64,000 nucleotides of DNA from Escherichia coli. Its GTDB lineage: Bacteria > Pseudomonadota > Gammaproteobacteria > Enterobacterales > Enterobacteriaceae. Under the pieces are notes generated by a model, which saw only the letters and a program-made list of their open reading frames with translations, was not told the DNA's origin and did no database searches. The stretch is taken from NCBI RefSeq assembly GCF_024298765.1, contig NZ_CP101210.1; one strand, given 5' to 3'. Positions 21,115 to 34,086 of this stretch are shown here, in pieces (the stretch's first letter is position 1; each line of letters starts with the position of its first letter). The position numbers and the translations under genes are program-made.

Positions 21115-21807
21115 CTAGTGATAACCACGCGCGGTCATAAAATCCGTAATCGCTTTTTCTGCATCAACCAGCACCTTTTCCAGTGGCTGATTGGCGTCGA
21201 TATCAACCAGTTGTGCACCGCCAAAGGTTAACTGTGGCGTTATGGCAATCTTCCTCGCCAGCGATTCCCGTTTATGGTCGGGTTTACGCGCGCAGGCAAC
21301 TTCAAGGTCAACATTGAGTTTGATGACCAGATCAGGCTTATGGCTCGCCATCCAGTGAAATGCTTTACGTTCCTGGCTTGCCAGCCATGAGACAAACCGG
21401 CCGCCTTCAACGTTAGGTGGGAACACCGTACCATCGTAAGCGCCAGGAATTTGGTCCTGAGGATAACGATCGGTTAAGACAATCAGCCCGCGACGACGAC
21501 AGGCGAGCATATGACGAAAGCGTAACAGTCGGCGGGCGACGAAAGCGGTGATCACCAGGGCCGGAACCGGACCCGGCAATTTTTTTGCCGTTTTCACTTC
21601 ATTTTTTTCAATAGTCTTGTGCAGAGACTTTCCCATCAACGGTAATTTTGTCACTGCACGACCGACATTTCCGGCCTGTTTTCCTAAATGAACTCTTTCG
21701 GCAGCACCATATTTTTCGACAACGGTAATAAGATGTTCACACACCGTTGACTTGCCTGAACCATCGCTACCAATAACGGCAATTAATGGAGGTGTTATTG
21801 ACTGCAT
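21115..21807 (-). CDS. yghT: P-loop NTPase-like protein (paralog 1 of 3)
   Basis: 230 aa; Walker [10 protein letters not shown]; shares DRYPQ and ARKPDH motifs with yghS and yghR. Confidence 0.8.
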
Positions 21808-21980
21808 GAATATATCCTTAAATTTAAATATCCATCCAAAATATTTATTTGATTAATATGTTTTTATGAAAGCGTAATTCAGGTTAATGTCACAATTAAC
21901 CATTGTCACAATAAGGTTGAACGGATATTCTGAGCACGGACCACGTAATATTCAATACATTATTTGCTGCCGGGTTTTTC

Positions 21981-22694
21981 GTGAATCAACGTAATATGTC
22001 AATAATTAATTCCACGCCAGTGCGTGTTATTGCCATTGTAGGATGTGATGGTTCAGGTAAATCGACCCTCACGGCAAGCCTGGTAAATGAACTGGCAGCA
22101 ACAATGCCAACAGAACACATTTATCTCGGGCAATCGTCCGGGCGAATTGGCGAATGGATTTCACAGCTCCCTGTTATTGGCGCACCTTTTGGGCGTTATC
22201 TGCGAAGTAAAGCGGCACATGTGCACGAAAAGCCCTCCACACCACCTGGCAATATTACTGCGCTGGTTATCTATCTGCTTTCCTGCTGGCGGGCGTACAA
22301 GTTTCGCAAAATGTTGTGTAAAAGCCAGCAAGGCTATCTGCTCATCACCGACCGCTACCCGCAGGTTGAAGTGCCGGGTTTTCGCTTTGATGGCCCGCAA
22401 TTGGCAAAAACCACGGGCGGTAACGGTTGGATAAAAATGTTAAGGCAGCGCGAGCTGAAGCTGTACCAATGGATGGCGTCTTATTTGCCCGTATTGTTGA
22501 TTCGTCTTGGCATTGATGAACAAACCGCGTTTGCGCGTAAACCTGACCACCAACTGGCGGCGTTACAGGAAAAAATCGCCGTTACGCCGCAACTGACATT
22601 TAATGGCGCAAAGATCCTTGAACTGGATGGTCGGCAACCCGCCGATGAAATTCTGCAAGCGTCACTACGCGCAATTCACGCCGCGCTTTCCTGA
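21981..22694 (+). CDS. yghS: P-loop NTPase-like protein (paralog 2 of 3)
   Basis: 237 aa from GTG (ATG alternative at 21996); Walker A GCDGSGKST. Confidence 0.8.
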   Translation: MNQRNMSIINSTPVRVIAIVGCDGSGKSTLTASLVNELAATMPTEHIYLGQSSGRIGEWISQLPVIGAPFGRYLRSKAAHVHEKPSTPPGNITALVIYLLSCWRAYKFRKMLCKSQQGYLLITDRYPQVEVPGFRFDGPQLAKTTGGNGWIKMLRQRELKLYQWMASYLPVLLIRLGIDEQTAFARKPDHQLAALQEKIAVTPQLTFNGAKILELDGRQPADEILQASLRAIHAALS

Positions 22695-22725
22695 TCACCA
22701 AAATGGATAGGGGATGATTTAACGA

Positions 22726-23484
22726 ATGGACGCACTACAAACACAAACTGTTAATAGTACAACCGCGCCGCAGCCCAACTACATTCCGGGGCTGATTGCG
22801 GTGGTCGGGTGTGATGGCACCGGTAAATCCACACTGACCACCGACCTGGTGAAATCGCTGCAACAACACTGGCAAACCGAGCGGCGCTATCTGGGGCTGC
22901 TCTCGGGCGAAGACGGCGACAAAATCAAACGATTGCCGTTGGTTGGCGTCTGGCTCGAACGGCGACTGGCGGCCAAATCCTCGAAAACCCAAAGCATGAA
23001 AACCAAATCTCCAGCGCTATGGGCGGCGGTGATTATGTACTGCTTCTCGCTGCGAAGAATGGCGAATCTACGCAAGGTTCAGCGACTGGCGCAAAGTGGC
23101 GTTCTGGTGGTCAGCGATCGCTTCCCGCAGGCTGAAATTTCGGGCTTTTATTATGACGGACCGGGGATCGGCGTCGAACGTGCGACCGGGAAAATCAGCA
23201 TGTTTCTGGCGCAGCGCGAACGGCGTTTATACCAACAAATGGCGCAATACCGTCCTGAATTAATCATTCGTTTGGGGATTGATATTGATACTGCCATCTC
23301 CCGCAAGCCTGACCATGACTATGCCGAGCTGCAGGACAAAATCGGCGTCATGTCGACGATTGGCTATAACGGCACAAAAATTCTTGAGATTGATTCCAGA
23401 GCGCCCTACAGCGAAGTGCTGGAACAGGCACAGAAGGCGGTTTCTCTGGTTGCCATCGTTTCTGACCGCCGAAGTTTAACTTAA
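22726..23484 (+). CDS. yghR: P-loop NTPase-like protein (paralog 3 of 3)
   Basis: 252 aa; Walker A GCDGTGKST; DRFPQ; SRKPDH. Confidence 0.8.
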   Translation: MDALQTQTVNSTTAPQPNYIPGLIAVVGCDGTGKSTLTTDLVKSLQQHWQTERRYLGLLSGEDGDKIKRLPLVGVWLERRLAAKSSKTQSMKTKSPALWAAVIMYCFSLRRMANLRKVQRLAQSGVLVVSDRFPQAEISGFYYDGPGIGVERATGKISMFLAQRERRLYQQMAQYRPELIIRLGIDIDTAISRKPDHDYAELQDKIGVMSTIGYNGTKILEIDSRAPYSEVLEQAQKAVSLVAIVSDRRSLT

Positions 23485-23529
23485 GGCTGGCGGGATACTT
23501 TTTACTATCAACGATAAGGTCAGGCTGAA

Positions 23530-24879
23530 TTGGCGGGTTTTAACATCAAACATTGGTTTGCAGATGGCGCGTTTCGCACCATTATTCGCAATAGCGCCTG
23601 GTTAGGCTCCAGTAATGTCGTGAGCGCTTTGCTGGGTCTGTTGGCGCTCTCGTGTGCCGGTAAAGGGATGACGCCCGCCATGTTTGGCGTACTGGTGATT
23701 GTACAATCGTACGCCAAGTCGATCAGCGATTTTATTAAGTTTCAGACATGGCAGCTGGTGGTTCAGTACGGAACACCAGCATTAACCAACAATAATCCGC
23801 AGCAATTCCGCAATGTCGTCTCATTTTCCTTCTCGCTGGATATCGTCAGCGGCGCGGTGGCGATTGTCGGCGGCATTGCCTTACTCCCTTTTCTTTCCCA
23901 TTCATTAGGTCTGGATGACCAAAGCTTTTGGCTGGCAGCGCTGTATTGCACGCTCATTCCTTCAATGGCTTCCTCCACGCCGACCGGCATTCTGCGTGCG
24001 GTAGATCGCTTCGATCTAATTGCTGTACAGCAAGCGACGAAACCTTTTCTGCGCGCAGCGGGGAGCGTCGTTGCCTGGTATTTTGACTTTGGTTTTGCGG
24101 GTTTTGTTATTGCCTGGTACGCCTCGAATCTTGTTGGCGGCACCATGTACTGGTGGTTTGCCGCACGTGAATTACGCCGCAGAAATATCCATAACGCGTT
24201 CAAATTGAATCTGTTTGAGTCTGCCCGACACATCAAAGGCGCGTGGAGTTTTGTCTGGTCAACCAACATTGCCCATTCCATCTGGTCGGCGCGTAATTCG
24301 TGCAGCACAGTGTTGGTGGGGATCGTGTTAGGACCCGCTGCCGCCGGGTTATTTAAAATCGCCATGACATTCTTCGACGCCGCCGGAACGCCAGCGGGTT
24401 TACTGGGCAAAAGTTTTTACCCAGAGGTGATGCGTTTAGATCCGCGTACCACCAGACCGTGGTTGTTAGGCGTGAAGTCAGGTTTACTGGCGGGCGGAAT
24501 CGGTATTCTGGTGGCGCTCGCGGTGTTGATTGTCGGCAAGCCGCTCATTTCGCTGGTGTTTGGCGTTAAGTATCTCGAAGCGTATGACCTGATTCAGGTG
24601 ATGCTGGGCGCAATTGTGATCTCGATGCTGGGCTTCCCTCAGGAGTCATTGCTATTGATGGCGGGAAAACAGCGCGCTTTTCTCGTGGCGCAAACCATCG
24701 CCTCAATCGGCTACATCGTATTGCTGTTCATGTTCTGTCATCTGTTTGGCGTGCTGGGAGCAGCGTTTGCTTATTTCGGTGGTCAATGTCTGGATGTGGT
24801 GCTTTCGCTAATTCCGACCTTAAAGGCATTTTTTCAGCGCCATTCCTTGCTTTATAACGCAGCCGGAGAGAAATCCTGA
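23530..24879 (+). CDS. yghQ: MOP/Wzx-like multi-pass membrane flippase-family protein (start uncertain)
   Basis: Long hydrophobic ORF; first in-frame ATG at 23668; frame open upstream to TTG at 23530. Confidence 0.65.
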   Translation: MAGFNIKHWFADGAFRTIIRNSAWLGSSNVVSALLGLLALSCAGKGMTPAMFGVLVIVQSYAKSISDFIKFQTWQLVVQYGTPALTNNNPQQFRNVVSFSFSLDIVSGAVAIVGGIALLPFLSHSLGLDDQSFWLAALYCTLIPSMASSTPTGILRAVDRFDLIAVQQATKPFLRAAGSVVAWYFDFGFAGFVIAWYASNLVGGTMYWWFAARELRRRNIHNAFKLNLFESARHIKGAWSFVWSTNIAHSIWSARNSCSTVLVGIVLGPAAAGLFKIAMTFFDAAGTPAGLLGKSFYPEVMRLDPRTTRPWLLGVKSGLLAGGIGILVALAVLIVGKPLISLVFGVKYLEAYDLIQVMLGAIVISMLGFPQESLLLMAGKQRAFLVAQTIASIGYIVLLFMFCHLFGVLGAAFAYFGGQCLDVVLSLIPTLKAFFQRHSLLYNAAGEKS

Positions 24880-25703
24880 TGATGAGAAAATATTTCCCGC
24901 TAGAGGCGAGCGAGCGTCTATTTGTTGCGATTGAAGAAGATGATGTCGTTGATGCACAGGTCAGTTTGCCGCCGACTATCGCACTAAGTTGTACCACCGA
25001 AATCATCCATGATAATTACGCGTTATGCCTGCAATTCTGGCTCAATGGCGTCAATCGCCAGGAGTTACTGCGTTTAATATGCAAACAGGCCAAAGGCGAT
25101 GAGCTGACTGCTGATGAGCGCAAACAATTTAAATACATGCGAGCGCGCTACAAGCACCTGCGTTTTGCGCAACGGCTGTATTTAAAGAAGCATCAGGCCG
25201 GATTTTTATTCGGCAAAACGACCGTTTTTTTGGGGCGTTTTCAGGACGGCTTTCGTAACGGTAAGAAAAATATTGTGTCGTATTACGGCAACCTGTTACG
25301 GGTTTATTTAAGCTCTCCGGTCTGGTCGTTGGTGAACTATTCATTACGCCATAGCCAGTTAGAAAGCGTAAGCGGTTTTATTGCCTATCGGCAAAAGCAA
25401 ATGCATACCCTGAAAGAGATAATTGCCAAACCGCGACTAACCGGCAGGGAATTTCATGATGTGCGAAAAATCATCAGCCAGCAGGTTTCTTATTACGACA
25501 CCCTAAGATCGCTTGATCCTGAAAATAAAGAAGCGTTACAGATTTCCCGCTTCCTCGCCGCCATTAATGGCCTGATGGGGGATAAACACGACGACATGGT
25601 GGCGGATGATATGGAAAACCGCCAGTCGTATGATGCACCGATGGCGCTGGATAGCGATATTCGCCAGCGCTTAGAACTGCTGATTTCGCGTTTTCCGCTA
25701 TAA
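24879..25703 (+). CDS. hypothetical cytoplasmic protein, 274 aa (island gene)
   Basis: ATG overlaps yghQ stop (TGATG); GGAGAG RBS at 24865-24870; no domain recognised. Confidence 0.6.
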   Translation: MMRKYFPLEASERLFVAIEEDDVVDAQVSLPPTIALSCTTEIIHDNYALCLQFWLNGVNRQELLRLICKQAKGDELTADERKQFKYMRARYKHLRFAQRLYLKKHQAGFLFGKTTVFLGRFQDGFRNGKKNIVSYYGNLLRVYLSSPVWSLVNYSLRHSQLESVSGFIAYRQKQMHTLKEIIAKPRLTGREFHDVRKIISQQVSYYDTLRSLDPENKEALQISRFLAAINGLMGDKHDDMVADDMENRQSYDAPMALDSDIRQRLELLISRFPL

Positions 25704-25711
25704 CCGGAGCA

Positions 25712-26275
25712 ATGATGTCATCTCGTTTGATTATTGCGCTGATTATCATGCTCTTAGCCCCGGGTGTGCAGGCACACAATTTCGTCACTGGCAAAACGGT
25801 TACCCCCGTTTATATCCAGGAAGGCGGCGAGCTGCTTCGGAATAGCGACGACGAAATTCACTACCAAAAGTGGAACAGCACCCAATTGGCGGGAAAAGTT
25901 CGCATTATTCAGTATATCGCCGGGCGTAAGTCGGCGAAGAAAAAGAACTCACTGTTAATTAAAGCAGTTGAAGCGGCAAACTTTCCGCAGGATCGTTTTC
26001 AGCCCACCACCATTGTGAACACTGATGATGCCATCTTTGGTACCGGCTATTTTGTCGTTGGCAAAATCGAAAAAAATAAACGCCGCTATCCATGGGCGCA
26101 ATTCGTTATTGACGGCAATGGACAGGGACGCGTTGCCTGGCACTTGCAGGAGCAGAGTTCAACCATTCTGGTGCTGAATAAAACCGGGCAAATTCAGTGG
26201 GCAAAGGACGGCAGCCTGACGCCGGAAGAGGTAGATCATGTCATTGCGCTGGCGCAGAAGCTGATCAATGAATAA
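25712..26275 (+). CDS. YtfJ-family secreted/periplasmic protein paralog
   Basis: 187 aa; signal peptide MMSSRLIIALIIMLLAPGVQA; strong resemblance to E. coli YtfJ as recalled (KVRxxQHIAGR, TTIVNTDDAI, VQWAKDGxLTPEEV). Confidence 0.65.
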   Translation: MMSSRLIIALIIMLLAPGVQAHNFVTGKTVTPVYIQEGGELLRNSDDEIHYQKWNSTQLAGKVRIIQYIAGRKSAKKKNSLLIKAVEAANFPQDRFQPTTIVNTDDAIFGTGYFVVGKIEKNKRRYPWAQFVIDGNGQGRVAWHLQEQSSTILVLNKTGQIQWAKDGSLTPEEVDHVIALAQKLINE

Positions 26276-26304
26276 AAATTCAAAGGATTGAGGGCGTTAG
26301 TGAG

Positions 26305-27375
26305 ATGAAGCTGGTTGAACACTACATCATGCGTGGTACGCGCCGTCTGGTGCTGATTATCGTCGGTTTTCTGATCTTTATTTTCGCCAGCTACTCCGCA
26401 CAGCGTTATCTGACCGAAGCGGCAAATGGGACATTAGCTCTTGATGTTGTGCTGGATATCGTTTTCTACAAAGTGCTGATTGCACTGGAGATGTTGTTAC
26501 CTGTTGGACTGTATGTGTCAGTTGGCGTGACGCTAGGGCAGATGTATACCGACTCGGAAATTACCGCTATCTCTGCGGCGGGGGGCAGTCCGGGACGCTT
26601 GTACAAAGCCGTTCTTTATCTGGCGATACCGCTAAGTATTTTTGTCACCCTTCTGTCGATGTATGGTCGTCCGTGGGCTTATGCGCAGATTTATCAACTG
26701 GAGCAACAGTCACAGTCGGAGCTGGATGTTCGCCAGTTGCGGGCAAAGAAATTTAACACTAACGATAACGGACGAATGATCCTTTCGCAGACGGTTGATC
26801 AGGATAATAATCGCCTGACTGATGCGCTGATTTATACTTCTACTGCTAATCGAACCCGCATTTTCCGCGCCCGTTCGGTTGATGTGGTTGACCCATCACC
26901 TGAGAAACCGACCGTTATGTTGCATAACGGGACCGCCTATCTTCTCGATCATCAGGGGCGTGACGACAACGAACAGATCTACCGTAATCTGCAATTACAT
27001 CTGAATCCGCTGGATCAAAGCCCTAACGTCAAACGCAAAGCAAAATCGGTCACGGAGCTGGCGCGCTCCGCCTTTCCTGCCGATCATGCCGAACTGCAAT
27101 GGCGACAAAGCCGTGGCCTGACAGCATTGTTGATGGCGCTGCTGGCCATTTCATTAAGTCGGGTAAAACCGCGGCAAGGGCGATTTTCAACGTTATTGCC
27201 ACTGACGTTGCTGTTTGTTGCCATTTTTTATGGCGGCGACGTCTGCCGTACGCTGGTGGCTAACGGCGCGATTCCCCTCATTCCTGGTTTGTGGTTAGTA
27301 CCCGGACTCATGCTAATGGGCCTGCTGATGTTGGTCGCACGCGACTTCTCTTTGCTGCAGAAATTTTCCCGATGA
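26305..27375 (+). CDS. LptF-like permease (YjgP/YjgQ family) paralog
   Basis: 356 aa; 6-TM pattern with large periplasmic loop; YTDSEIT and KPRQGRF motifs resembling LptF. Confidence 0.7.
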   Translation: MKLVEHYIMRGTRRLVLIIVGFLIFIFASYSAQRYLTEAANGTLALDVVLDIVFYKVLIALEMLLPVGLYVSVGVTLGQMYTDSEITAISAAGGSPGRLYKAVLYLAIPLSIFVTLLSMYGRPWAYAQIYQLEQQSQSELDVRQLRAKKFNTNDNGRMILSQTVDQDNNRLTDALIYTSTANRTRIFRARSVDVVDPSPEKPTVMLHNGTAYLLDHQGRDDNEQIYRNLQLHLNPLDQSPNVKRKAKSVTELARSAFPADHAELQWRQSRGLTALLMALLAISLSRVKPRQGRFSTLLPLTLLFVAIFYGGDVCRTLVANGAIPLIPGLWLVPGLMLMGLLMLVARDFSLLQKFSR

Positions 27376-28451
27376 ATGTTTTCAGTCGCTATTTAATCCG
27401 TCATCTCTTTCTCGGTTTTGCCGCCGCCGCAGGGCTATTGCTGCCGCTTTTTACCACCTTCAACCTGATTAACGAACTGGATGATGTCAGCCCGGGTGGT
27501 TATCGCTGGACTCAGGCGGTGCTGGTGGTGCTGATGACCTTACCGCGCACACTGGTCGAACTTTCGCCGTTTATCGCCTTATTGGGAGGGATTGTCGGCC
27601 TGGGGCAGTTATCGAAAAACAGTGAGCTTACCGCCATTCGCAGCACGGGGTTTTCTATCTTCCGTATTGCACTGGTGGCGCTGGTTGCCGGGATATTGTG
27701 GACTGTTTCATTAGGCGCGATAGATGAGTGGGTGGCGTCGCCATTGCAGCAACAGGCGCTGCAAATCAAATCGACTGCCACTGCGTTGGGGGAGGACGAT
27801 GACATTACCGGCAATATGCTGTGGGCCAGGCGTGGTAATGAATTTGTGACGGTGAAATCGCTGAACGAGCAGGGCCAGCCGGTGGACGTGGAGATATTTC
27901 ATTACCGCGATGATCTCTCGCTCGAATCCTACATTTATGCGCGCAGTGCTACCATTGAAGACGACAAAACGTGGATCCTGCATGGTGTGAATCATAAAAA
28001 ATGGCTGAATGGCAAAGAAACGCAGGAAACATCTGATAATCTTCCCTGGCAATCGGCCTTCACCAGTATGAATCTTGAAGAGTTATCGATGCCGGGAAAT
28101 ACTTTTTCTGTCCGTCAACTTAATCATTACATCCATTATTTGCAGGAAACCGGGCAACCCAGCAGCGAATACCGCCTTGCACTGTGGGAAAAACTGGGAC
28201 AACCCATCTTGACCCTGGCGATGATTTTGCTGGCTGTGCCGTTTACCTTTAGCGCCCCGCGTTCGCCTGGGATGGGTAGCCGTCTCGCTGTAGGCGTCAT
28301 CGTTGGCTTACTCACCTGGATCAGCTATCAAATCATGGTCAATCTGGGATTGTTATTTGCGTTGAGCGCACCTGTTACCGCGCTCGGTTTACCGGTAGCG
28401 TTTGTGCTGGTGGCGTTGAGCCTGGTGTATTGGTATGACAGACAACATTAA
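27372..28451 (+). CDS. LptG-like permease (YjgP/YjgQ family) paralog
   Basis: ATG at 27372 overlaps upstream stop (ATGA); MNVFSRYLIRHLF N-terminus typical of LptF/G family; 359 aa. Confidence 0.7.
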   Translation: MNVFSRYLIRHLFLGFAAAAGLLLPLFTTFNLINELDDVSPGGYRWTQAVLVVLMTLPRTLVELSPFIALLGGIVGLGQLSKNSELTAIRSTGFSIFRIALVALVAGILWTVSLGAIDEWVASPLQQQALQIKSTATALGEDDDITGNMLWARRGNEFVTVKSLNEQGQPVDVEIFHYRDDLSLESYIYARSATIEDDKTWILHGVNHKKWLNGKETQETSDNLPWQSAFTSMNLEELSMPGNTFSVRQLNHYIHYLQETGQPSSEYRLALWEKLGQPILTLAMILLAVPFTFSAPRSPGMGSRLAVGVIVGLLTWISYQIMVNLGLLFALSAPVTALGLPVAFVLVALSLVYWYDRQH

Positions 28452-28485
28452 ACCCGCCGTGGCGCAACACCACAGCGGGCTCACA

Positions 28486-29658
28486 TTACTGCTTCAGAGT
28501 AGCAAATGCCTGAATGATGGCATCGATTTGCTCACGACTGTGGGCAGCGTTTACGCTACAGCGCAGCAGCGTGATGCCTGCAGGCGCGGCAGGTGGCAGG
28601 ATAAGATTCACATAAACGCCCAGCGAAATAAGCTCGCGCCAGATGCGTAAACCTTCCTCTTTCGAACCGATTATTACTGGCACTACCGGGCTAATATGTG
28701 AACTTAACTCATAACCCAGTTTTTGCAGACCGTCATACAGATGGTTGGCGTTATCCATCAGTTTTTGCCGCAGCTCTGGTTGTGTGGAAATGGTTCTTAA
28801 CGACGAGCGCACGGTCGCAATGCAGGACGGAGAAGGAGAGGCGGTAAAAATATACGGGCGGCTGCCGTAGCGCAGCACTTCCATCGCTTCTGAACCCACG
28901 GCAAAACCACCAATGGAAGCCAAACTTTTACTGAAGGTGCCGACGATAATATCCACGTCGTCTTCAACGCCAACGGCTTCAACCAGTCCGCGGCCTGTTG
29001 CGCCTAACACGCCAAACGAATGTGCTTCATCGACAATCAAATAACCACCGAGACGACGTTTGATATCAACAATTTCTGCCAGCGGCGCAACGTCACCGAG
29101 CATACTGTAGATGCCTTCAACGATAATAATCGCCTCTTTCGCCCGTTCACCGAGGCGGACCATGCGCCGTTCCAGATCGTTGACGTCATTATGGCGGAAA
29201 CGAATAATCTCTGCGCCGCCGAGAGAACAGGCGTCATAAATACTGGCGTGGCTGTCGGCATCCAGTAACACCACGGCGTTATGGTCGGCAAGTGCGCTGA
29301 TGACACCTAAATTAGCGGTATAACCGGTTGAAAAAACGATAGCGGTAGGGCGATTGAAAAACTCGGCAATCTCTTTCTCTAACGCCAGATGCGGCGCATA
29401 ACTGCCGTTTGCCATACGAGAACCGGTGGTGCCAGTGCCTTGGGCCGCTAACGCTGCCTGACCTTCGCGGATAGCATCATGATTAAAGGTTAAACCGAGA
29501 TAATTATTGGTCCCGGCCAGAATCACTTTTTTATTGCCGATCCGGCCTTCGGTGGCGGAATACACTTCATCAATACAGGTGCCAAATGGTGTTAACCCGT
29601 TGTCACTAAATTGCAGGCGCTCGCCAGCAAGGCGCGCATATTTATCGTATAGCCCCAT
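28486..29658 (-). CDS. alpha-oxoamine synthase, serine palmitoyltransferase-like (PLP-dependent)
   Basis: 390 aa; DEAHSFG and GTFSKSLAS motifs (Lys244 codon at 28927-28929) typical of SPT/KBL/AONS family. Confidence 0.75.
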   Translation of the reverse strand: MGLYDKYARLAGERLQFSDNGLTPFGTCIDEVYSATEGRIGNKKVILAGTNNYLGLTFNHDAIREGQAALAAQGTGTTGSRMANGSYAPHLALEKEIAEFFNRPTAIVFSTGYTANLGVISALADHNAVVLLDADSHASIYDACSLGGAEIIRFRHNDVNDLERRMVRLGERAKEAIIIVEGIYSMLGDVAPLAEIVDIKRRLGGYLIVDEAHSFGVLGATGRGLVEAVGVEDDVDIIVGTFSKSLASIGGFAVGSEAMEVLRYGSRPYIFTASPSPSCIATVRSSLRTISTQPELRQKLMDNANHLYDGLQKLGYELSSHISPVVPVIIGSKEEGLRIWRELISLGVYVNLILPPAAPAGITLLRCSVNAAHSREQIDAIIQAFATLKQ

Positions 29659-29906
29659 TATTTATTCTCCAGCCATGGAAGTAGAGTTTCCATTAATTGC
29701 GCAGGGGTTTTGACATCCAGCAGAATATTAATAGGAATGGAAATATCGAATCTGTCTTCCAGCATCATTAAGAGATCCATCACTTTGATCGACTCCAGGC
29801 CAAGATCGTTGACGAGATCGCTGTCGGGCTTAATTTCCACACCGTTTTCGACCAAATCCTGTAAACAGGAAAGGATGTAATCCATTACTATTTCACGATT
29901 TACCAT
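29658..29906 (-). CDS. dedicated acyl carrier protein
   Basis: 82 aa; DLGLESIKVMDLLMMLEDRF helix-2 region with candidate phosphopantetheine Ser; stop overlaps AOS start (TAATG). Confidence 0.65.
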   Translation of the reverse strand: MVNREIVMDYILSCLQDLVENGVEIKPDSDLVNDLGLESIKVMDLLMMLEDRFDISIPINILLDVKTPAQLMETLLPWLENK

Positions 29907-29937
29907 AGAAACGTTAACACACCTTTAAACAAGACAA

Positions 29938-30852
29938 TCAAAATAGCCCGTTGCGTAATGCGTGTTCCAGGCTAATCCCGGGAAACCAATTAATATCTTC
30001 AGAAATACGGTTATTATTTGCCGACCAGTCGGCGTGGGTTAATTCACGAATTTTCGAGCGGGTCAGCATAGGTTCTTTACCTGCCAGGCGACTCAACGCA
30101 GTACTGATATCCGCAAGGCAGGTGAGTAGCGGCAGAGGAATGCCAACCATCCGCACAGAACCACAACGGGCTTCGGCGGCAAGCTGTCGTACGCGTTGCC
30201 AGTCATAGCCGCCAGCGACGCCATCGCATAATTCATAGGTTTGCGTCTGTACAGTTTCGGCGTTTAACCACTGACCCACTGCTTGCGCAAAATCGGTGAC
30301 GTGCAGGAAAGAGAGTTGTGTATCTGGCGCACCAAGTCGTGGCAGCAGGCCGCGCAGCATCCAGTCAAACAGCGGTTTTAACTCTTTATCGCCGGGACCA
30401 TACACGGCTGTCGGGCGAAAAATGCCCAGCGTAATTTCGTCAGCCATTGCGATCAGTCGTTGTTCGGCGACGTGTTTGGAATTTGCGTACCAGGAGAGTT
30501 CGGGATGGCGCGCCGCCAGCGAAGAGATAAACAGAAAACGTTGGCAAAAGCCGCTCTCTTTTGCCGCTTGCATCAGGCGCAGGCTGCCGTCAACGTTACA
30601 GCGGGTAAAAATCTCTTCTTTGTGTCCGCGCACTTGTCCGGCGCAATGGACCACCGCGCTGGCTCCGGCAACCAGTTCGCTAAGCGAATGTGTATCTTCC
30701 AGCGAACCGCGCACCCAGATGAGATTATCATTGACGTGAGCGCGGGCAGTACGCGTCAATGTGCGAACGTGAAAGCCGCGGGCGAGCAGGTTATCGATAA
30801 TATATTTACCGATAAACCCGGTAGCGCCCGTCACCGCGACAGTTTGATTCAT
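29938..30852 (-). CDS. NAD(P)-dependent epimerase/dehydratase-fold reductase
   Basis: ATG at 30852 (MNQTVAVTGATGFIGKYI), 304 aa; YANSK catalytic dyad; track ORF has an N-terminal extension overlapping the upstream gene. Confidence 0.7.
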   Translation of the reverse strand: MNQTVAVTGATGFIGKYIIDNLLARGFHVRTLTRTARAHVNDNLIWVRGSLEDTHSLSELVAGASAVVHCAGQVRGHKEEIFTRCNVDGSLRLMQAAKESGFCQRFLFISSLAARHPELSWYANSKHVAEQRLIAMADEITLGIFRPTAVYGPGDKELKPLFDWMLRGLLPRLGAPDTQLSFLHVTDFAQAVGQWLNAETVQTQTYELCDGVAGGYDWQRVRQLAAEARCGSVRMVGIPLPLLTCLADISTALSRLAGKEPMLTRSKIRELTHADWSANNNRISEDINWFPGISLEHALRNGLF

Positions 30853-32573
30853 GCCAGGGATTCCTGCACATGAAGGCTTGCAGCATAAGCCTTCTGATAA
30901 CGTTTTTTCGCTTCCGCACGGGCAGGCTTGCCGGAGGACGTTCGGGGAATACTGTGGGGCGGCAACAGATCGATAGCCGCGGTCACGCCAAATTCGCTTT
31001 GGATCCGTGCTACCAGTGCGTGGATAAGCTGCCCACGACGTTCTTCGTCGCTGATCCGACACTGGATCTGCAAAATGATTTTTTCCTGGGCGGTAACAAA
31101 AGCAATCGCATCGCCAGAATGAATTTCCGGTTCCTGTTCCGCAATGTATTCAATATCCTGCGGCCAGATATTACGGCCACGAATAATAATCAGATCTTTA
31201 ATGCGTCCGGTGACATACAGATAACCGTCCAGCAGATAACCGAGGTCGCCGGTGTCTAACCAGCCCGTCGCGGCAATCTCGTCTTGCGAAACCTGGTCGC
31301 CAAAGTACCCGCTCATCAGGCTGGGGCCGGAGATGCAAATATGGCCTACCACACGTTCCGCGACAGGTATATCTGCTTCATTGCGGATTTCAATGCCATG
31401 TTCCGGCAACGCTTTACCGCAGTTGACGAAAGTCGATACGGCGCGTGTTTCAGCACCCGGCGCGACGGCTTTACCCTGGTATTCGAGGATGTCGCGATCC
31501 ACTTCGTTAACCACAACCCCGCAGGCTTCATCAGAGAAGCTGACAGCCAGCGCATTTTCTGCCAGTCCGTAGCACGGCATGAAAGTTTTATCGTCAAAGT
31601 TAACCTGACGAAAACATTCAGCGAATTGATGGAGTTGTTCTGCGGAGATCGGTTCTGCTCCAATACCAGCGACGCGCCAGCAGGAAAGATCCAGTTCAGC
31701 GAGATCTTTTTCATTCACGCGGCGCTGGCACAATTCATAGCCAAACGGCGGTGCAACGGAAACGGTGCCGCGATTTTTACTGATCAATTTAAGCCATTGC
31801 AGAGGACGCATGGCAAAATCCTGAGTGCGCAAATAATCTACTGAAAGCTGCGTGGCGACGGGGGTCAGGAGAAAGCCGACCAGTCCCATATCATGGTAGA
31901 AAGGCAGCCAGGAGACGCAGCGGTCGCCAGGGCGTAATTTAATGCCATCGTGGCTTATAGCACGTAGATTAGCCATCACTTCGTGATGGGTGATAATGAC
32001 GCCACGGGGAAAACGGGTGCTGCCGGAGGTGTACTGGAGGTAGGCGATATCGTTCGGAACTGGACGCTGGAGCGCAACATCGGCTTCCGGTAATGCCTTA
32101 AACCAGGCGTGGCTTAAAACATGTAATTCGGGGTTGTTGTTATGCGTCGCGGCATTGACCAGCGGTAACCACTCATCACCAGTGATAATGGCTGCGGGCT
32201 GGCAACTTGCCAGTAAACCCTGCAGTTTGGCGCTCCAGGAATCCCGCTGACCGACGCCCATTGGAATCGCCAACGGGACGGCGACTAAGCCGGCACACTG
32301 GCAGGAAAAAAAAGCCTCTACAAACCCGCTACTCGTTTCGGCAATCAGCGCCACGCGATCGCCTTTTTTCAGGTTCAGCGATAACAACCGCTTCGCACCA
32401 GCTTCGGCACGCGCTTTTAACGTCTGATATTCCAGTTGATCTTCAAGTTGGCAACGTCTGTCATAAAAATTCATTCCGGCGCTACTCAGAGCGGCGTAGT
32501 CCAAAGCATCAACCAGCGTTGGAAAATCGGCATAGCGCATAGGTAGGGAATGCGTAAAGATTTTATTAGACAT
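30849..32573 (-). CDS. fatty acyl-AMP ligase / acyl-ACP synthetase-like adenylating enzyme
   Basis: About 574 aa from ATG at 32573; YTSGSTRFPRG core motif; GRIKDLIIIRGRNIWPQDIE; stop overlaps next start. Confidence 0.7.
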   Translation of the reverse strand: MSNKIFTHSLPMRYADFPTLVDALDYAALSSAGMNFYDRRCQLEDQLEYQTLKARAEAGAKRLLSLNLKKGDRVALIAETSSGFVEAFFSCQCAGLVAVPLAIPMGVGQRDSWSAKLQGLLASCQPAAIITGDEWLPLVNAATHNNNPELHVLSHAWFKALPEADVALQRPVPNDIAYLQYTSGSTRFPRGVIITHHEVMANLRAISHDGIKLRPGDRCVSWLPFYHDMGLVGFLLTPVATQLSVDYLRTQDFAMRPLQWLKLISKNRGTVSVAPPFGYELCQRRVNEKDLAELDLSCWRVAGIGAEPISAEQLHQFAECFRQVNFDDKTFMPCYGLAENALAVSFSDEACGVVVNEVDRDILEYQGKAVAPGAETRAVSTFVNCGKALPEHGIEIRNEADIPVAERVVGHICISGPSLMSGYFGDQVSQDEIAATGWLDTGDLGYLLDGYLYVTGRIKDLIIIRGRNIWPQDIEYIAEQEPEIHSGDAIAFVTAQEKIILQIQCRISDEERRGQLIHALVARIQSEFGVTAAIDLLPPHSIPRTSSGKPARAEAKKRYQKAYAASLHVQESLA

Positions 32574-32600
32574 ATACACCACGAAAAAATTGGATATCAA

Positions 32601-32943
32601 AAATAAAATGACAATAATGCGGTGGATTATATAGGCATAAAAGATAAATGAGATAGTATTTTCATCAGTGTGAAAATGAACATTGATTTAAATAATGAGT
32701 TTGAGTTTTTTTGTTTTTATTGTGAATGATATTTAATTTATGAATATATTAAGAAGAAGCCTTGTCCGGTCGCCTTAAATCGACAAAAGGCATTGTGGCG
32801 CTTCTGTGTAGTCTCTGACCTTATCGTAATCATTAATAATACTATTTATTCGTCGTTTGTATTCATTGGGTTGATTGTTAAGGTGCCGTTCGTTGCTGTT
32901 GCAACCTGTTTGTCACCGTTAATTATTTGTTACCCACAGAACT
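32601..32943. promoter_or_regulatory. AT-rich divergent intergenic region (promoters for lipid operon and yghO)
   Basis: About 340 bp markedly AT-rich with A/T tracts, flanked by divergent start codons. Confidence 0.5.
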
Positions 32944-34086
32944 ATGGAATGCGATCTGCTGATGATTAAAATTGAAAAAGTAATTAATAAAAATGACCTT
33001 AAGGCATTTATCGCTTTTCCGTCATCACTTTATCCCGACGATCCAAACTGGATACCCCCTTTATTCATTGAACGCAACGAGCATTTGTCTGCGAAAAATC
33101 CGGGGACGGACCATATCATCTGGCAGGCGTGGGTGGCAAAAAAAGCGGGGCAGATAGTTGGGCGTATTACCGCGCAAATCGATACCTTGCACCGCGAGCG
33201 TTACGGCAAAGATACCGGTCATTTCGGCATGATTGACGCCATTGATGATCCGCAGGTTTTTGCCGCGTTGTTTGGCGCAGCGGAAGCGTGGTTGAAGTCA
33301 CAAGGTGCAAGTAAGATCAGCGGTCCTTTCAGCCTGAATATCAATCAGGAAAGCGGATTACTGATTGAAGGTTTCGATACACCACCCAGTGCGATGATGC
33401 CACACGGTAAACCGTGGTATGCCGCGCATATTGAACAACTGGGTTATCACAAAGGCATTGATTTACTGGCGTGGTGGATGCAGCGAACCGATCTCACTTT
33501 CTCTCCGGCGCTAAAAAAACTGATGGATCAGGTGCGCAAAAAAGTGACCATTCGCTGCATCAATCGCCAGCGGTTTGCCGAAGAGATACAGATCCTGCGT
33601 GAGATTTTCAATTCTGGCTGGCAGCACAACTGGGGATTTGTGCCGTTTACCGAACATGAATTCGCGACCATGGGCGATCAACTTAAATATCTGGTGCCGG
33701 ACGATATGATCTACATCGCTGAGATTGATTCTGCACCCTGCGCGTTTATTGTTGGCTTGCCGAACATCAACGAGGCGATTGCCGATCTGAACGGATCGCT
33801 CTTTCCCTTCGGCTGGGCAAAATTGCTGTGGCGTTTGAAAGTCAGCGGTGTGCGAACTGCGCGAGTGCCGCTGATGGGCGTGCGGGACGAGTATCAGTTC
33901 AGCCGCATCGGCCCGGTAATTGCGCTGTTATTGATTGAAGCCTTACGCGATCCGTTTGCCCGTCGGAAGATCGATGCGCTGGAGATGTCATGGATCCTCG
34001 AAACCAATACAGGCATGAATAACATGCTGGAACGCATTGGGGCGGAGCCGTACAAGCGTTACCGATTGTATGAAAAGCAGATTTGA
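32944..34086 (+). CDS. yghO: GNAT-fold acyltransferase-like protein (uninterrupted reading frame)
   Basis: 380-aa ORF from ATG 32944 (alternative ATG 32962); divergent from lipid operon. Confidence 0.65.
   Translation: MECDLLMIKIEKVINKNDLKAFIAFPSSLYPDDPNWIPPLFIERNEHLSAKNPGTDHIIWQAWVAKKAGQIVGRITAQIDTLHRERYGKDTGHFGMIDAIDDPQVFAALFGAAEAWLKSQGASKISGPFSLNINQESGLLIEGFDTPPSAMMPHGKPWYAAHIEQLGYHKGIDLLAWWMQRTDLTFSPALKKLMDQVRKKVTIRCINRQRFAEEIQILREIFNSGWQHNWGFVPFTEHEFATMGDQLKYLVPDDMIYIAEIDSAPCAFIVGLPNINEAIADLNGSLFPFGWAKLLWRLKVSGVRTARVPLMGVRDEYQFSRIGPVIALLLIEALRDPFARRKIDALEMSWILETNTGMNNMLERIGAEPYKRYRLYEKQI

Follow-up and report, generated by a model that had tools for sequence, protein, structure and literature searches.

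An Escherichia coli gene for a very probably acyl-AcpR-using serine palmitoyltransferase, and the conserved 13-gene module around it

The window, meaning the whole stretch of DNA that was analyzed, comprises 64,000 nucleotides of an Escherichia coli contig (NZ_CP101210.1, assembly GCF_024298765.1). The gene of interest, spt, is an uninterrupted minus-strand open reading frame at 28486..29658, with an ATG start and 390 residues; it corresponds to RefSeq spt WP_000524954.1, a serine palmitoyltransferase (SPT). A script search of the translation placed the motif DEAHSFG at residues 210-216 and GTFSKSLAS at residues 240-248. Lys244, the PLP Schiff-base lysine, is encoded by the AAA codon at 28927..28929 (minus strand) and corresponds to Lys265 of S. 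paucimobilis SPT in an alignment to structure 2jg2. An earlier note on this DNA had picked out both motifs and this lysine codon, and we found every one of its coordinates to be right.

Three genes precede spt on the same strand. The nearest, acpR (29658..29906), encodes a dedicated acyl carrier protein of 82 aa, recognized from ACP-family matches. Next is cerR, also termed epi (29938..30852), for a 304-aa reductase of the NAD-dependent epimerase/dehydratase family according to its SDR/epimerase matches and the RefSeq annotation. Then comes aasR (30849..32573), for the fatty acyl-AMP ligase that loads AcpR; AasR scores 860.9 bits with model NF006624, whose cut-off is 600. That score accords with the reported inability of AasR to make acyl-CoA. 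The TAA stop codon of acpR overlaps the ATG of spt by one base (TAATG), and the start codon of cerR overlaps the stop codon of aasR (ATGA); these overlaps fit a co-translated operon aasR-cerR-acpR-spt. Transcribed divergently from aasR is yghO (32944..34086, plus strand), named so in RefSeq and matched by published BLAST to the Caulobacter ceramide synthase, the N-acyltransferase CC_1154. Pfam and NCBIfam scans and a PDB sequence search with YghO returned nothing significant. The five genes of the ceramide set (aasR, cerR, acpR, spt and the CC_1154-type N-acyltransferase gene yghO) are thus adjacent, with spt joined by the genes at 29658-34086 and preceded by acpR. The earlier note had pointed to a dedicated acyl carrier protein and an acyl-AMP ligase nearby and to a lack of biotin or threonine dehydrogenase neighbors. 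Both observations hold, with none of the latter genes annotated within about 10 kb.

On its other side spt converges on an lptG paralog across a 34-bp gap, where a consensus scan found a 16-bp GC-rich hairpin (28449..28483, minus strand) that is terminator-like with a weak T-tail. The paralog, lptG2 (27372..28451), and the genes beyond it as far as yghS lie on the plus strand. LptG2, from a second lptG copy, scores 310.1 bits with TIGR04408 (cut-off 240), and LptF2, from a second lptF copy (26305..27375), scores 319.8 bits with TIGR04407 (cut-off 230). The gene at 25715..26275 encodes a member of the YtfJ family (TIGR01626, 212.5 bits, cut-off 151) whose N terminus resembles a signal sequence. 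Adjoining it is a gene for a 274-aa all-helical protein (24879..25703) that is found mainly in Enterobacterales and for which Pfam, NCBIfam and PDB sequence searches gave no match. Its AlphaFold model has a pLDDT of 90, and the best meaningful Foldseek alignments of this model were to the CHAD domains 6qv5 and 3e0s, with probabilities of 0.98 and 0.87, E values of 0.095 and 0.35, and a TM score of about 0.45; from the model we tentatively suggest a weak resemblance to CHAD domains. The 449-aa product of yghQ (23530..24879) is a MOP/Wzx-type flippase-like membrane protein, with a weak MOP flippase match of its own and Pfam Polysacc_synt in its orthologs.

Three P-loop, dTMP-kinase-like paralogs complete this side. 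YghR (22726..23484) has weak matches to TIGR00041, under the cut-off. YghS (21981..22694) has weak P-loop and dTMP-kinase matches, and a PDB sequence search and a Pfam scan with it gave nothing significant. YghT, encoded on the minus strand at 21115..21807, where the conserved module ends on this side, has weak dTMP-kinase similarity. All three share the motifs DR[YF]PQ and ARKPDH. We considered whether they might be ceramide kinases of the CpgB type; Caulobacter CpgB has the LCB5/DAG-kinase fold and carries a GGDG motif (PMC10331486). This was rejected, as only weak P-loop and dTMP-kinase matches were seen. Also dropped was the idea that the flanking genes form an anti-phage defense system, the PADLOC P-loop matches being marginal, with E values of 2e-4 or weaker. 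Literature searches on yghQRST found nothing relevant.

Together these genes make up a 13-gene module, yghT to yghO, in which yghO is divergent from aasR-cerR-acpR-spt, and this operon in turn is convergent with lptG2-lptF2-ytfJ-like-274aa-yghQ-yghR-yghS, followed by yghT. Beyond the module the window holds gss, pitB, glcC and glcDEFGB, neighbors belonging to the E. coli chromosome. Many RefSeq genomes match a 14-kb stretch here at 100% identity, and in them our reading frame is annotated "spt: serine palmitoyltransferase" and is flanked in order by genes for an acyl carrier protein, an NAD-dependent epimerase/dehydratase family protein, a fatty acyl-AMP ligase and protein YghO.

[quoted passage not shown] Caulobacter LptF2/LptG2 have been proposed to serve sphingolipid export (PMC11324152). 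Since that proposal already links the second LptF/LptG copies and a flippase to sphingolipid genes, the association is not new here. The two clusters differ in their remaining genes. The Caulobacter head-group genes, namely those for the LCB5-type ceramide kinase CC_1160, for CofC-like, LicD-like and CDP-alcohol-transferase-like enzymes and for LptC2, are without counterpart in the E. coli module, which has in their place the three P-loop dTMP-kinase-like paralogs, the YtfJ-family protein and the 274-aa helical protein.

The placement of Spt relative to BioF, Kbl, ALAS and CqsA was judged by curated HMM cut-offs together with a score ranking of PDB chains. Spt scored 598.6 bits with NF047599, the NCBIfam equivalog for serine palmitoyltransferase (cut-off 500), over model positions 1-390 of 394. 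This was the sole curated NCBIfam equivalog cut-off that it passed. Scores with the two other SPT models were below their cut-offs, at 429 bits for the alphaproteobacterial model NF047603 (cut-off 670) and 340 bits for the Bacteroidetes-type model (cut-off 640). Below cut-off as well were the BioF model TIGR00858 (335.8 bits against 426.45), the Kbl models NF005394 (299.2 against 460) and TIGR01822 (249 against 493), the CqsA model NF005526 (226 against 428) and the ALAS model (219 against 339). Among all PDB chains, the S. paucimobilis and S. wittichii SPTs (2jg2, 2x8u) topped the ranking at 374-377 bits. Lower scores went to Sphingobacterium (S. multivorum) SPT (265 bits), cysteate acyltransferase (28eh, 7u7h; 209 bits), E. 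coli Kbl (1fc4; 185 bits), E. coli BioF (1bs0; 180 bits) and CqsA (127 bits). Chance matching is excluded by E values of 4e-180 for the NCBIfam SPT model and 1e-111 for the Sphingomonas SPT structures.

Residues of Spt were mapped by alignment to 2jg2, in native S. paucimobilis SPT (SpSPT) numbering, and in a 25-sequence alignment. The functional roles of the SpSPT catalytic residues have been summarized (PMC6148460). The His159-Ala-Ser segment of SpSPT corresponds to H137-A138-S139 of Spt, Asp231 to D210, His234 to H213, Lys265 to K244 and Arg390 to R366; R366 is invariant in the 25 aligned sequences. Of the relatives with solved structures, the Sphingomonas SPT ranks first, scoring 377 bits with about 47% full-length identity. 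Like Spt, it has an architecture of the soluble homodimeric type, and the catalytic His, Asp, His, Lys and Arg are common to both. It differs in the Arg378 of its mobile loop, a Leu in Spt, and in that Spt falls in NF047599 ("BetaP") and below the NF047603 cut-off.

The same locus has been studied in E. coli BL21(DE3) by Padilla-Gómez et al. (2022, Front Microbiol; PMC9386255). We equated old and new BL21(DE3) locus tags by identical gene order. In BL21(DE3) the genes for Spt, AcpR and AasR occupy the same chromosomal locus as in the window, between glcC/yghO and yghQ, again in the same order. Spt is identical to ECD_02854 at 384 of 390 residues (98%). The six substitutions (window to BL21: R64S, V159A, N160K, V226A, S291A, E335D) leave the catalytic residues unaffected. 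AcpR is identical to ECD_02853 at all 82 residues, and AasR is 97% identical to ECD_02851.

In those assays, cell extracts with ECD_02854 (SPT-Ec) converted L-[14C]serine to a lipid migrating as 3-oxo-sphinganine, and palmitoyl-AcpR gave far more product than palmitoyl-CoA or palmitoyl-AcpP, the AcpR of this in vitro preference assay being the Caulobacter protein, not that of E. coli (PMC9386255). The E. coli AcpR (ECD_02853) carries 4'-phosphopantetheine, and co-expression of AasR-Ec, AcpR-Ec and SPT-Ec yielded 3-oxo-sphinganine in vivo (PMC9386255). AasR-Ec did not serve Caulobacter AcpR, and the pairing of AasR with its cognate AcpR was shown (PMC9386255). Published BLAST comparisons of Caulobacter with BL21(DE3) proteins gave 4e-144 and 53% identity for CC_1162 (Spt) against ECD_02854, 7e-38 and 34% identity for CC_1164 (reductase) against ECD_02852, and 1e-107 and 44% identity at 98% coverage for CC_1154 (ceramide synthase) against ECD_02850 (YghO) (PMC9386255 supplement).

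With a probability that we put at roughly 0.93, the reading frame at 28486..29658 encodes the Spt of E. coli, a serine palmitoyltransferase that is soluble, depends on PLP, belongs to the proteobacterial subfamily NF047599 and uses acyl-AcpR. The earlier note had seen an enzyme of the Spt/Kbl/BioF/CqsA family, Spt-like within it, and this agrees with the equivalog cut-off that Spt alone passes, with its closest structures being bacterial SPTs, and with the retained catalytic residues. Its further proposal, an acyl-ACP-dependent long-chain amino-ketone synthase, is established by the published assays on the near-identical BL21(DE3) enzyme (PMC9386255). The finding is already known: spt is named in RefSeq, and the enzyme, its carrier protein and the loading ligase were characterized from E. 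coli BL21(DE3) in 2022.

The reaction would proceed as follows. AasR would load free fatty acid onto AcpR, and the resulting acyl-AcpR, rather than acyl-CoA, would be the preferred acyl donor. PLP would be held by Lys244 as an internal aldimine, from which L-serine would displace it to form the external aldimine. Binding of the long-chain acyl thioester would then trigger deprotonation, Claisen condensation and decarboxylation, releasing 3-oxo-sphinganine. In Caulobacter, five genes (aasR, cerR, acpR, spt and the ceramide synthase gene) suffice for dihydroceramide synthesis, and aasR-cerR-acpR-spt with the divergent yghO supplies such a five-gene set in E. coli. We infer that E. coli also carries out the reduction and N-acylation steps and makes a sphingolipid in vivo.

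If Spt is a genuine SPT, its cluster in E. coli could still be silent, an evolutionary remnant that yields no physiologically relevant lipid. Extracts of empty-vector BL21(DE3) showed no detectable 3-oxo-sphinganine although the cluster is chromosomal there (PMC9386255), and our searches of a literature library for sphingolipid in wild-type E. coli or enterobacteria found no report. K-12 offers a further point on that side. In MG1655 an IS5 element (IS5LO) lies between yghO and a truncated yghQ, and everything from aasR through the 3' part of yghQ is gone, so that eight module genes are lost, with no obvious harm, and yghQ persists as a remnant of 355 aa. Moreover, about a quarter of complete E. 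coli genomes are without spt. Against a silent remnant stands the prevalence itself, spt being carried by 4134 of the 5426 complete genomes and nearly always at 95-99% identity. All thirteen module genes are intact in the window, with dN/dS values of 0.02-0.20 in the comparison with BL21(DE3); relative to other genera, dN/dS does not exceed 0.21 in pairs with unsaturated dS. These ratios indicate that the 13-gene module is under purifying selection. The block and its gene order are also kept in Hafnia, Shimwellia blattae and Citrobacter amalonaticus, at chromosomal sites with different flanking genes. We take prevalence, intactness, low dN/dS and block retention as signs of selection for function, and consider a silent remnant unlikely.

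It is possible, if doubtful, that in most natural E. coli and in Hafnia, Shimwellia, Citrobacter amalonaticus and related Enterobacterales the yghT-yghO module makes a sphingolipid and exports it to the outer membrane. Its head group would be of a non-Caulobacter kind (not ceramide phosphoglycerate), built by YghR, YghS and YghT with the CHAD-like 274-aa protein; YghQ would flip the lipid and a complex of LptF2 and LptG2 would extract it; and K-12 would have hidden all this through the IS5 deletion of eight genes. That deletion makes the pathway unfamiliar from K-12 work, and means that the K-12 workhorse strains are without a lipid pathway that, by the dN/dS ratios, some three quarters of sequenced E. 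coli appear to keep under purifying selection. Should a sphingolipid indeed reach the outer membrane of E. coli in the gut, this would bear on envelope biology, on polymyxin and detergent sensitivity and on host sphingolipid signaling.

The native amino-acid substrate of Spt might be not serine but, for example, glycine, alanine or cysteate, and the product an amino-ketone lipid resembling a sphingolipid, or else a signal molecule, instead of a true sphingoid base. The published work leaves some room for this, as L-serine was the only amino-acid substrate assayed, 3-oxo-sphinganine was assigned from a product that ran with a standard on TLC, and several more SPT-dependent labelled lipids were left unassigned (PMC9386255). 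Cysteate acyltransferase and CqsA belong to the same superfamily as Spt. There is also the difference in the mobile loop. Arg378 of SpSPT swings in and forms a salt bridge with the serine carboxylate, and the corresponding residue of Spt is Leu354, so this arginine is not kept. Yet every NF047599-type sequence of the 25-sequence alignment has L, V or I there. Because all NF047599-type sequences examined are hydrophobic there, Leu354 is a subfamily trait and not an anomaly, and we dropped it as a mark of changed amino-acid specificity. Judged by this alignment, Arg378 marks the Sphingomonas group, not SPT overall. Serine is further favored by the incorporation of its 14C label into the lipid migrating as 3-oxo-sphinganine (PMC9386255), by the SPT equivalog score, by the much lower PDB scores of cysteate acyltransferase and CqsA (209 and 127 bits against 377 for SPT), and by the CerR and ceramide synthase homologs in the cluster. 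A native amino acid other than serine is highly improbable.

That Spt is instead a redundant paralog of BioF (8-amino-7-oxononanoate synthase) or Kbl (glycine C-acetyltransferase), a reading that the names in many older database entries imply, can be practically dismissed: several records do file identical or near-identical proteins as "8-amino-7-oxononanoate synthase" or "7-keto-8-aminopelargonate synthetase-like", and the common fold and motifs produce substantial scores on both family models, but those scores are under the curated cut-offs of both families, E. coli BioF and Kbl reach less than half the score of the Sphingomonas SPT, bio and tdh neighbors are absent, and formation of a long-chain product has been shown experimentally (PMC9386255). 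What Spt has in common with E. coli BioF and Kbl is the alpha-oxoamine synthase fold, the PLP lysine and the DxxH motif; it differs from them in substrates and genomic context, and they score 180-185 bits where SPT scores 377. Nesting of Spt with BioF or Kbl had been set beforehand as an outcome that would count against the assignment, and cut-offs and structure ranking alike favored SPT.

Serine palmitoyltransferase as the identity of Spt also fits its wider relatives. Close clusters were few among the 1.84 billion cluster representatives searched. The nearest full-length 50%-cluster representatives, at 45-55% identity to Spt, likewise passed NF047599, and the next tier of relatives, at 37-41% identity, scored best with the Bacteroidetes-type SPT model.

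The ceramide genes sit inside a 13-gene block running from yghT to yghO (21115–34086 in the window). Gene order within the block is the same in Hafnia, Shimwellia and Citrobacter amalonaticus; the genes flanking it differ. Every gene of the block is under purifying selection. Comparison of the K-12 MG1655 locus (3130146–3131340) with 24000–32900 of the window showed that an IS5 element has taken the place of aasR, the 3′ part of yghQ and everything between them. Following this replacement K-12 MG1655 keeps a 355-aa YghQ, and the end of yghO is altered there. In Hafnia, a gene for an Sfp-type 4′-phosphopantetheinyl transferase (Pfam 4PPT_N and ACPS; L004 4570–5226) adjoins yghO; E. coli lacks a gene of this type at the locus.

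Within Spt, Leu354 (28597–28599) is the counterpart of Arg378 in Sphingomonas serine palmitoyltransferase. That arginine lies in a loop and binds the serine carboxylate, whereas a hydrophobic residue holds the position throughout the subfamily to which Spt belongs. The spt gene and the lptG paralogue are convergent, and a GC-rich hairpin of 16 bp (28449–28483) occupies precisely the interval that separates them; judging from its sequence, it may serve as a bidirectional terminator. Complete E. coli genomes yielded 4138 copies of spt, one of them plasmid-borne, and a few genomes carried two copies.

Among Spt-related database proteins, P0244, a 794-aa representative, has ∼398 additional N-terminal residues fused to the Spt domain, and P0264 lacks the PLP lysine. 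P0048, called as an ACP–Spt fusion (97% identical) in a eukaryote dataset, is probably E. coli contamination.

YghT, YghS and YghR (21115–23484) are three paralogous P-loop proteins that have in common the motifs DR[YF]PQ and ARKPDH. RefSeq labels two of them 'dTMP kinase'; against the dTMP kinase model these proteins scored 25–31 bits, far under the cutoff of 83.

The 274-aa protein encoded at 24879–25703 on the plus strand is all-helical, with five invariant histidines, and is distributed mainly in Enterobacterales. It matched no family in Pfam or NCBIfam. Its AlphaFold model is confident, and bears a weak likeness to CHAD domains, which bind polyphosphate.
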